Virus record (IMG/VR): IMGVR_UViG_2609459825_000013
Location: 1 to 6,374 of that record
Origin: a virus
Taxonomy: Monodnaviria > Loebvirae > Hofneiviricota > Faserviricetes > Tubulavirales > Inoviridae
Length of the DNA stretch: 6,374 nt
Reading direction: 5' to 3' (one strand)
Shown: positions 5,184 through 6,374 of the stretch, one piece after another
Position numbering within the stretch: the first letter of the stretch is position 1
Layout: each line of letters opens with the position of its first letter
Notes under the pieces: generated by a model
Databases searched by the model: none
Seen by the model: the letters and a program-made list of their open reading frames with translations, nothing else
Told to the model about the DNA's origin: nothing
Translations under genes and position numbers: made by a program

Positions 5184-6374
5184 TTGATTCACTTTATTAT
5201 TCCGCTTCTGTTTTTGTTCTTTTCCTCGTTTTCTTTCGCTGAAGAGAAAGAAAATCCGGATGCACTTGTTCAGTGTGCAGGCCATTTATCCTGCAGGACA
5301 GATTATTCGGACGCGGGGACGTCGATTAAATTAGCCAGGGCGGCCGGTCATCTTTTCTGTGGTTCGGGCAATTATGACGCATGTTCCGGAATAATTCATT
5401 ATTGTGGTGTGCCACTTTCAACGCCTGTTAATGCACCTTCGACTGTCGGGTCTTTTGTCCGTGCCCGGTGGTCAGCATATAAAGTCTGGGATTCAGACAA
5501 GCAAAAGTGGACAGCCTGCACCCTTGCTTTTCAGGGTGGTGAGGGGGATTTGACACCTGAATATAATAAGCCGCCAACTGACGAGATTTGTCTTTCTCGT
5601 CCGGTTCTTGATGGTATGACTTTTTCTGATGTTTATAAAGGTGATGACGGGACCCGTTATGTTAATGTGCAGGGGTGTATTTATGAGGCAACCGGCAATC
5701 CTCTTATTTGTAATCCCGATGATGATACAGTTTGTACTGCCGACTGGAAACCAGTTGCTGTAGATCCTGCATTCTCCGATGGTAAGGAGGATGGCGGTAG
5801 CTCAGGTGGTGGCAGTTCCGGTGGTGGTAACCCAGGCGGCGGCAGTTCCGGTGGTGGTTCAGGTTCTGGCTCCGGTGGTTCATCCGGTAGCGGTGGCTCC
5901 GGCTCGGGTTCCGGCGGCTCATCCGGCAGTGGTGGTTCAGGTTCTGGCTCCGGTGGTTCATCCGGTAGCGGTGGCTCCGGCTCGGGTTCCGGCGGCTCAT
6001 CCGGCAGTGGTGGTTCAGGTTCTGGCTCCGGTGGTTCATCCGGTAGCGGTGGCTCCGGCTCGGGTTCCGGCGGCTCATCCGGCAGTGGTGGTTCAGGTTC
6101 TGGCTCCGGTGGTTCATCCGGTAGCGGTGGCTCCGGCTCGGGTTCCGGCGGCTCATCCGGCAGTGGTGGTTCAGGTTCTGGCTCCGGTGGTTCATCCGGT
6201 AGCGGTGGCTCCGGCTCGGGTTCCGGCGGCTCATCCGGCAGTGGTGGTTCAGGTTCTGGCTCCGGTGGTTCATCCGGTAGCGGTGGCTCCGGCTCGGGCT
6301 CCGGCGGTTCATCCGGTAGCGGTGGCTCCGGCTCGGGCTCCGGCGGTTCATCCGGTAGCGGTAGTTCAGGTTCA
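5184..6374 (+). CDS. pIII-like minor coat / adsorption protein, 3'-truncated by window edge
   Basis: Not in the ORF track because no stop falls inside the window. Probable TTG start at 5184, 8 nt after AGGAG (5171-5175), in frame after a TAG at 5124-5126. Signal peptide IHFIIPLLFLFFSSFSFA, then a Cys-rich domain (10 Cys) whose end GCIYEATGNPLICNPDDDTVCTADWKPV aligns with f1 pIII N1 GCLWNATGVVVCTGDETQCYGTWVPI, then a long Gly/Ser linker to the window end. Confidence 0.85.
   Translation, partial: MIHFIIPLLFLFFSSFSFAEEKENPDALVQCAGHLSCRTDYSDAGTSIKLARAAGHLFCGSGNYDACSGIIHYCGVPLSTPVNAPSTVGSFVRARWSAYKVWDSDKQKWTACTLAFQGGEGDLTPEYNKPPTDEICLSRPVLDGMTFSDVYKGDDGTRYVNVQGCIYEATGNPLICNPDDDTVCTADWKPVAVDPAFSDGKEDGGSSGGGSSGGGNPGGGSSGGGSGSGSGGSSGSGGSGSGSGGSSGSGGSGSGSGGSSGSGGSGSGSGGSSGSGGSGSGSGGSSGSGGSGSGSGGSSGSGGSGSGSGGSSGSGGSGSGSGGSSGSGGSGSGSGGSSGSGGSGSGSGGSSGSGGSGSGSGGSSGSGGSGSGSGGSSGSGGSGSGSGGSSGSGSSGS
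5803..6374 (+). repeat. In-frame tandem repeat array inside the pIII gene encoding a (GSSGSGGSGSGSG)n Gly/Ser linker
   Basis: A 78-bp unit (two 13-codon half-units differing by synonymous changes) is repeated five times with 100% identity from 5881 to 6270, preceded by degenerate Gly-rich sequence from about 5803 and followed by 39-bp variant units from 6271 to the window end. Confidence 0.9.

Follow-up and report, generated by a model that had tools for sequence, protein, structure and literature searches.

The attachment protein pIII (g3p) of filamentous phages holds its head domains on flexible, Gly-rich linkers, and it is already known from phage IKe and from the UPΦ prophages that the number of repeats in such linkers can vary. 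In IKe the length of the Gly-rich linker of g3p is known to vary (Bruno and Bradbury 1997, as cited in PMC7307601), the region diversifies within few laboratory generations (PMC7307601), and in the UPΦ prophages how many glycine-rich repeats g3p contains is the most variable feature (PMC7307601). Here we describe the pIII gene of an inovirus prophage of Escherichia coli, which lies in a stretch of 6,374 nucleotides (nt; IMG/VR record IMGVR_UViG_2609459825_000013, positions 1 to 6,374; the whole stretch is hereafter called the window) and whose linker is encoded by a tandem array of 39-bp units. The novelty of this locus is one of degree: its unit of 13 pure Gly/Ser residues is encoded in two versions that differ by synonymous codons, and the length of the linker is three to four times that in IKe or Ff.

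The g3p of IKe and I2-2 (Lineavirus) shows the same architecture as the protein described here, i.e. a signal peptide, an N-terminal receptor domain, a TolA-binding domain, a single Gly-rich linker and a C domain. The IKe linker comprises about 50 residues with mixed GGxT/D/S motifs, whereas the present one comprises about 200 nearly pure Gly/Ser residues arranged in 13-residue units, and neither the N-terminal domain found here nor the C domain of the relatives has detectable similarity to those of IKe. In addition, the replication protein (Rep) of IKe and Lineavirus is pII-like, whereas that of the present phage is GPA/RstA-like. The UPΦ phages (Shapiro and Putonti 2020, PMC7307601) are likewise filamentous prophages of E. 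coli integrated in tandem at dif. According to the published description, on which the comparison with UPΦ is based, their linker motif is GGGES and their g3p shares about 70% identity with its IKe/I2-2 counterpart, whereas the motif found here contains no acidic residues, has a 13-residue unit and stands in a protein of which only the TolA domain is IKe-like (about 44%). Judged by its sequence, with a GPA/RstA-like Rep and the TolA-binding domain as the only IKe-like one, this phage would not belong to UPΦ or Lineavirus.

The pIII of the Ff phages (M13/fd/f1) possesses a homologous TolA-binding domain, N1, and there too the connection between heads and C domain is made by flexible linkers rich in Gly. 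In Ff, however, N1 comes first, N1 and N2 are docked and two linkers of the EGGGS type total about 58 residues, whereas the order of the domains is reversed here and one linker is about three to four times longer; the linkers of If1 have about 15-25 residues. The linkers of Ff are invisible in cryo-electron microscopy owing to their flexibility, high infectivity depends on the spacing of N1-N2 from the C domain being preserved, and it has been proposed that, owing to the long linkers, the pilus is within reach of several pIII copies (PMC10175506). YpfΦ/CUS-1 (CUSΦ) has likewise been described as integrating in tandem at dif, in E. coli and Yersinia; its unit measures about 8.7 kb, and its organisation resembles that of CTXφ (PMC4266046). 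According to that description, what it has in common with the present phage is its lifestyle.

The linker array and the pIII assignment

It is highly probable that the region from 5793 to 6374 encodes the flexible Gly/Ser tether of a filamentous-prophage pIII, in the form of a minisatellite-like array that gains and loses units in frame. Tandem Repeats Finder places the array at 5851-6362 with a period of 78 bp (6.6 copies, 97% matches, score 961) and describes the same array with a period of 39 bp as 13.1 copies with 79% matches. Together with a lag test and the in-frame composition, this confirms the proposal of an initial annotation of the window that a very long Gly/Ser linker is built from 78-bp tandem repeats. 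The five identical 78-bp units plus variants counted there are correct, and a count of 5.5 is more exact; in frame, the order of the 39-bp units is (AB)5-A-C-C. When 39-mers are laid out from 5851, which is an out-of-frame register, five AB pairs extend to 6240 and are followed by A, two copies of the variant C and a remainder of 17 nt.

Unit A (GGTGGTTCAGGTTCTGGCTCCGGTGGTTCATCCGGTAGC) and unit B (GGTGGCTCCGGCTCGGGTTCCGGCGGCTCATCCGGCAGT) both encode GGSGSGSGGSSGS. The two differ at nine positions, all nine of which are third codon positions and synonymous in the pIII frame, and all differences between the other unit variants are likewise confined to third codon positions. The peptide was therefore conserved while the DNA diverged, which indicates purifying selection on the pIII frame. 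A and B are two old synonymous versions of one 13-codon unit, and the 78-bp period appears to be an amplified AB dimer which is present in five copies in this lineage.

In the translation, residues 204-397 (nt 5793-6374) comprise 105 Gly, 87 Ser, one Asn and one Pro, i.e. 194 residues of which 99% are Gly or Ser. The location proposed at first, 5803-6374, holds with respect to the Gly/Ser content, but the run begins 10 nt earlier. Similarly, a minimum of 190 residues had been given for an array running past the edge; the length stands, but the units end at 6359, 15 nt before that edge. The statement that the linker is much longer than that of Ff agrees with the at least 194 residues found here against a total of about 58 in Ff (PMC10175506). 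Upstream of the units lies a proximal segment of the GGGSS type (Table 1), a motif which makes up the whole linker in other pIII alleles.

Downstream of the units the contig contains only the first 15 nt of a conserved distal segment, which in the closest relatives (L001, L006 and L007, with the same type of C domain) continues with GGATCCGGTGGCTCATCCGGC and then GATGACAATGGC. Beyond these 15 nt, seven more Gly/Ser codons follow in L001, L006 and L007 and five in L003, and then DDNGW, which is the start of the C-terminal domain in the relatives. From this comparison the array is essentially complete within the window, and the full linker would have about 201 and the full protein about 568 residues.

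The assignment of the gene to pIII, as it had been annotated initially, is well supported by the position of the gene and by its N1 domain. In relatives the same TTG start is annotated, and their complete open reading frames (ORFs) encode 419-529 amino acids (aa). The translation begins with a hydrophobic leader of 19 residues that ends with SFA, from which cleavage before EEKEN can be predicted by reading. The N-terminal domain (residues 20-128) has neither a sequence match in the PDB nor a fold match, and its AlphaFold2 (AF2) model has a predicted local distance difference test score (pLDDT) of 60-80; by analogy with IKe this domain is presumed to bind the primary receptor. The TolA-binding domain (residues 132-195) matches Pfam PF05357 (Phage_Coat_A) with E=6.6e-9 and 35.8 bits, the curated cut-off being 20.8, and the IKe structure 4eo1 in the PDB with E=3.7e-13 and about 44% identity. 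Other PDB matches of this domain are 2x9a from IF1 (4.8e-8), 1fgp from fd (3.8e-7) and, also from Ff, 2g3p, 1tol and 8b3o. Foldseek yielded target-normalised TM-scores of 0.80-0.86 for the TolA-binding domain, and a fold search of the N-terminal 203 residues produced matches via this domain only. The C-terminal domain lies beyond the window; in the relatives it has 150-164 residues, ends with a hydrophobic helix and RR, and follows the linker in all complete cases. The order of the domains is a head domain, a TolA-binding domain, a single Gly-rich linker and a C domain, the last of these being taken from the relatives.

Unit number among relatives and in this contig

Arrays of the same type with 1, 4, 5, 7, 10 and 13 units are found in the window and its relatives taken together, which bears out the in-frame change of copy number that had been expected from the identity of the repeats. 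Thirteen units (ABABABABABACC) are present in the window and its sister contig. Three other draft assemblies, GCA_000704585.1, GCA_000704665.1 and GCA_000687025.1, are near-clonal, with 1-3 substitutions relative to this one over 13.7 kb of flank and phage; among the near-clonal drafts, L007/L009 shows ten units (ABACCCCDCC) and L006 five (ABACC). Four units (ABAC) are found in chromosome-level or complete genomes, five units in complete genomes (AEABA, BAFGC and BAAHA) and in one draft third-party annotation (TPA) assembly (ABABA; L016), seven units (AEAEABA, ABAEABA) in two long chromosome-scale records (L019/L020, L023), and a single unit A in one draft. All observed arrays keep the reading frame.

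In the allele group closest to the window the linkers have 84, 97, 162 and at least 194 residues. The differences are multiples of 13, in line with the suggested length steps of 13 or 26 residues, and among otherwise close relatives the linkers range from 33 to at least 194 residues. Other alleles have GGGSS/GGGNS linkers of 76-116 residues, and a third motif, GGSSGGSTS, is present as well. In E. coli E100341 (L005, chromosome-level), the pIII genes of the tandem prophages at 11227-12561 (444 aa) and 19727-21091 (454 aa) differ solely by 10 residues in the GGGSS-type linker. These sequences indicate that the in-frame polymorphism of linker length is real, including in long-read assemblies.

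Units C and D resemble chimeras with the head of B and the tail of A, which is the expected product of a misaligned exchange. Because the AB dimers are perfectly identical, the units chimeric and the arrays polymorphic, slipped-strand mispairing or unequal recombination may be the process by which units are gained and lost in frame, and the length of the tether would thereby shift by 13 or 26 residues without destruction of the protein. As a separate observation, pIII in L019 (UGBV01000003.1 copy 2) and L023 (CP170302.1) is broken up into several ORFs or shows changed residues directly behind the linker, and this would fit indel errors as well as genuine frameshifts close to the repeat.

Several observations weigh against the reading of this locus as a pIII gene with so long an array. 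With respect to the protein, the C domain of the relatives has no significant similarity to the C domains of IKe and Ff (E=0.17 in a BLASTP comparison with IKe, no match in a PDB search), and its AF2 model is of low confidence (pLDDT 40). With respect to the array, the window is an entire draft contig (JNPS01000103.1, 6,374 bp, of GCA_000703845.1) which ends 15 nt past the repeat, and JNPS01000035.1 of the same assembly, with a further phage copy and the chromosomal flank on the hipA side, stops at exactly that base. Up to this shared end the second contig departs from the window at a single position, by a substitution at 1230 of the window, which lies upstream of Rep; as both contigs stop at the same base, the assembler broke at the repeat twice, and the warning of a possible assembly artefact was apt. 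Furthermore, arrays of 10 and 13 units are found only in the near-clonal drafts, with their 1-3 substitutions per 13.7 kb, none of the complete RefSeq E. coli genomes has an array of more than about 260 nt, and long-read genomes have a maximum of seven units. Most of the homologues in the databases are 'partial' proteins cut within the linker, showing that short-read assemblies often fail at this repeat.

For this contig, 13 cannot be taken as a certain number of units, and it is possible, if rather doubtful, that the count is inflated or otherwise wrong. A specific version of this doubt, to which we likewise give only tentative credence, is that the true array is short here, e.g. ABACC as in the near-identical L006, and that the assembler looped through A-B-A several times. 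The array of the window indeed equals that of L006 with four extra AB dimers, in strains that are nearly identical over 13.7 kb, and such an error would fit the common end of the two contigs directly after the array, the many homologues that are cut in the linker and the maximum of seven units in long-read genomes. However, the contig starts in unique sequence on the left, crosses the array and enters the distal segment that is expected there, the sister drafts bridged arrays of 5 and 10 units without a break, suggesting that the data could span several hundred bases and that only the longest array failed, and the variation in unit number is genuine in long-read assemblies.

Possible roles of the tether

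As part of a pIII, the disordered Gly/Ser tether would join the two head domains to a C domain embedded in the tip of the virion, and it may let the receptor-binding and TolA-binding heads reach their targets. A wide range of tether lengths, from 33 to about 200 residues, would be tolerated. The persistence length of Gly/Ser linkers, described as worm-like chains, is about 0.45 nm. By a rough estimate with this model, the contour length of about 200 residues would be about 76 nm and their root-mean-square span about 8 nm; by the same estimate, 84 residues would span about 5.4 nm and the distal linker of Ff, with its 39 residues, about 3.7 nm. If the count is right, this phage provides a natural pIII with a nearly pure Gly/Ser tether of about 200 residues, with relatives going down to 33, and the range would show which tether lengths are tolerated by the infection machinery, which is of use for the design of phage display and for modelling the path of the TolA-binding head to the periplasm. 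How filamentous phages are currently understood to infect is left unchanged by this. In practical terms, most short-read assemblies break within gene III at the repeat, which leaves almost all copies in the databases 'partial' and unannotated, and the array could serve as a marker within clones in the manner of a variable-number tandem repeat.

It has to be considered whether the array is an adaptive contingency locus, in which the length of the tether tunes the reach through capsule, O-antigen and periplasm and hence host range or the efficiency of infection. Linkers of 33 to at least 194 residues among close relatives and the differences between near-clonal strains would fit such a role, as would the effect that the spacing between heads and C domain has on the infectivity of Ff (PMC10175506), and the authors of the UPΦ study raise host range as an untested possibility (PMC7307601). 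On the other hand, a naturally longer Gly-rich region was reported to bring IKe no selective advantage (Bruno and Bradbury 1997, as cited in PMC7307601), on/off switching is not to be had from a unit whose length is divisible by three, and the unit differences between near-clonal strains come from drafts, so that we regard this explanation as unlikely. On/off phase variation itself was rejected, given that the 39-bp units correspond to 13 codons and the frame is kept in all observed arrays.

The pIII alleles are mosaic (L001-L005, L016, L020, L021 and L023), with at least three alleles of the N domain, three linker motifs and three types of C domain. Two TolA-domain types with 30% identity to each other and two main C-domain types with 45-49% identity occur in all four combinations, and all four combinations of N domain and TolA domain are present likewise. 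Linker DNA of the same repeat family sits between the divergent TolA-binding and C-domain modules, and the conserved repeat DNA is shared by pIII alleles that are otherwise 30-50% divergent. The N-terminal module is joined to the TolA-binding one by a conserved hinge, QGGEGDLTPEYNKP. From these sequences it is suggested, and only suggested, that linker and hinge are plausible crossover points in hosts with tandem non-identical prophages. An extension of this idea, which we put forward with little confidence, is that the array is a fast-evolving module with a dual role, in which changes in length on the scale of a clone (5, 10 and 13 units, 1-3 single-nucleotide polymorphisms apart) tune reach and host range, while the array also acts as a crossover joint where co-resident tandem prophages swap heads and anchors.

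It is extremely improbable that the Gly/Ser region forms a gene by itself or is translated from the opposite strand or in a different frame: the gene caller of the source lists 5791-6374 as a 194-aa partial gene of its own, having missed the TTG at 5184, and a 215-aa ORF runs through the repeat on the minus strand, but no stop lies between that TTG and 6374, the relatives have single joined ORFs, and the differences between units are synonymous only in the pIII frame and would alter residues in any other. A second open frame on the plus strand also passes through the repeat, at about 5779-6374, and is, like the minus-strand ORF, a by-product of GC-rich, stop-free codon repeats. A synthetic (GGGGS)n vector linker was rejected as well, the gene being part of a natural dif-site prophage that is found in many isolates.

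Prophage context

In the window, the 3' part of a secretin gene (PF00263) is followed by a small regulator on the minus strand, a replication endonuclease of the Phage_GPA type, a 141-aa protein in the position of the single-stranded DNA-binding protein, two small ORFs, the major coat protein of 80-86 aa, a terminator hairpin and the pIII gene; the coordinates are compiled in Table 1. A stem-loop is annotated at the same position in IKe, before gene III. In complete relatives, pIII is followed on its 3' side by a pVI-like ORF of 119 aa (phrog_1944), Zot/pI (PF05707) and the secretin/pIV (PF00263). Rep shares about 30% identity with RstA of CTXφ and with the Rep proteins of two Vibrio phages, VFJ and fs2. 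A megablast search with the whole window returned no match among deposited phage genomes, and no relative emerged when species-representative genomes were scanned with the N-terminal half of pIII.

Table 1. Coordinates of the pIII gene, its segments and other features in the window
Feature	Position	Strand	Description
dif-like site	1177-1209		AGTGCGCATAATGTGACACGCGTTATGTTGAAA; matches to XerC arm and XerD arm, 11-nt spacer instead of 6, identified by eye
Major coat gene	4863/4881-5123	+	upstream of pIII
Terminator-like hairpin and T-run	5139-5165	+	stem AGCGCCC/GGGCGCT, 7 pairs (6 G-C), then TTTTTAATCA
pIII/g3p attachment-protein gene	5184-6374	+	TTG start, AGGAG at 5172-5176, no stop up to contig end
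Signal peptide	5184-5240	+	aa 1-19, LIHFIIPLLFLFFSSFSFA; read from the translation, without predictor
N-terminal domain	5241-5567	+	aa 20-128, Cys-rich; position of first domain of IKe g3p
TolA-binding (N1-type) domain	5577-5768	+	aa 132-195; Pfam PF05357, PDB, Foldseek
215-aa ORF	5704-6351	-	shadow of the repeat, not a gene; A/B differences synonymous only in pIII frame
Proximal linker segment	5793-5852	+	20 aa, GGSSGGGSSGGGNPGGGSSG; GGGSS-type, 15/30-bp period, precedes units
Perfectly 78-bp-periodic core	5851-6298	+	448 nt, 5.74 copies (lag test)
13 in-frame 39-bp units	5853-6359	+	each GGSGSGSGGSSGS; order A B A B A B A B A B A C C
Start of conserved non-repeat distal linker segment	6360-6374	+	15 nt, GGTAGTTCAGGTTCA; contig end

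The prophage is integrated at the dif site of E. coli. The canonical 28-bp dif site was not found with up to three mismatches allowed, and the dif-like site listed in Table 1 lies where the homology to the hipA-side end of the prophage starts (1178) and that to the secretin end stops (1181). From these boundaries it follows that two prophage copies in tandem meet within the contig.

Two further observations concern the variability of these prophages. The divergent regulator on the minus strand (1495-1710) encodes a 70-aa protein without a Pfam match, and in otherwise similar prophages (upstream regions of L015, L019 and L024) its place is taken by an HTH_3 protein of 153 aa, a helix-turn-helix (HTH) protein of 108 aa or a pair of 62 and 71 aa, suggesting from sequence comparison that immunity modules may be exchangeable among these prophages. 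Finally, L003 (7024-13290; E. coli AST240 and several Japanese O166:H15/AST strains) contains a truncated prophage away from dif, which extends from Rep to a partial Zot, lies directly downstream of an IS110-family transposase gene and adjoins a truncated dinG.

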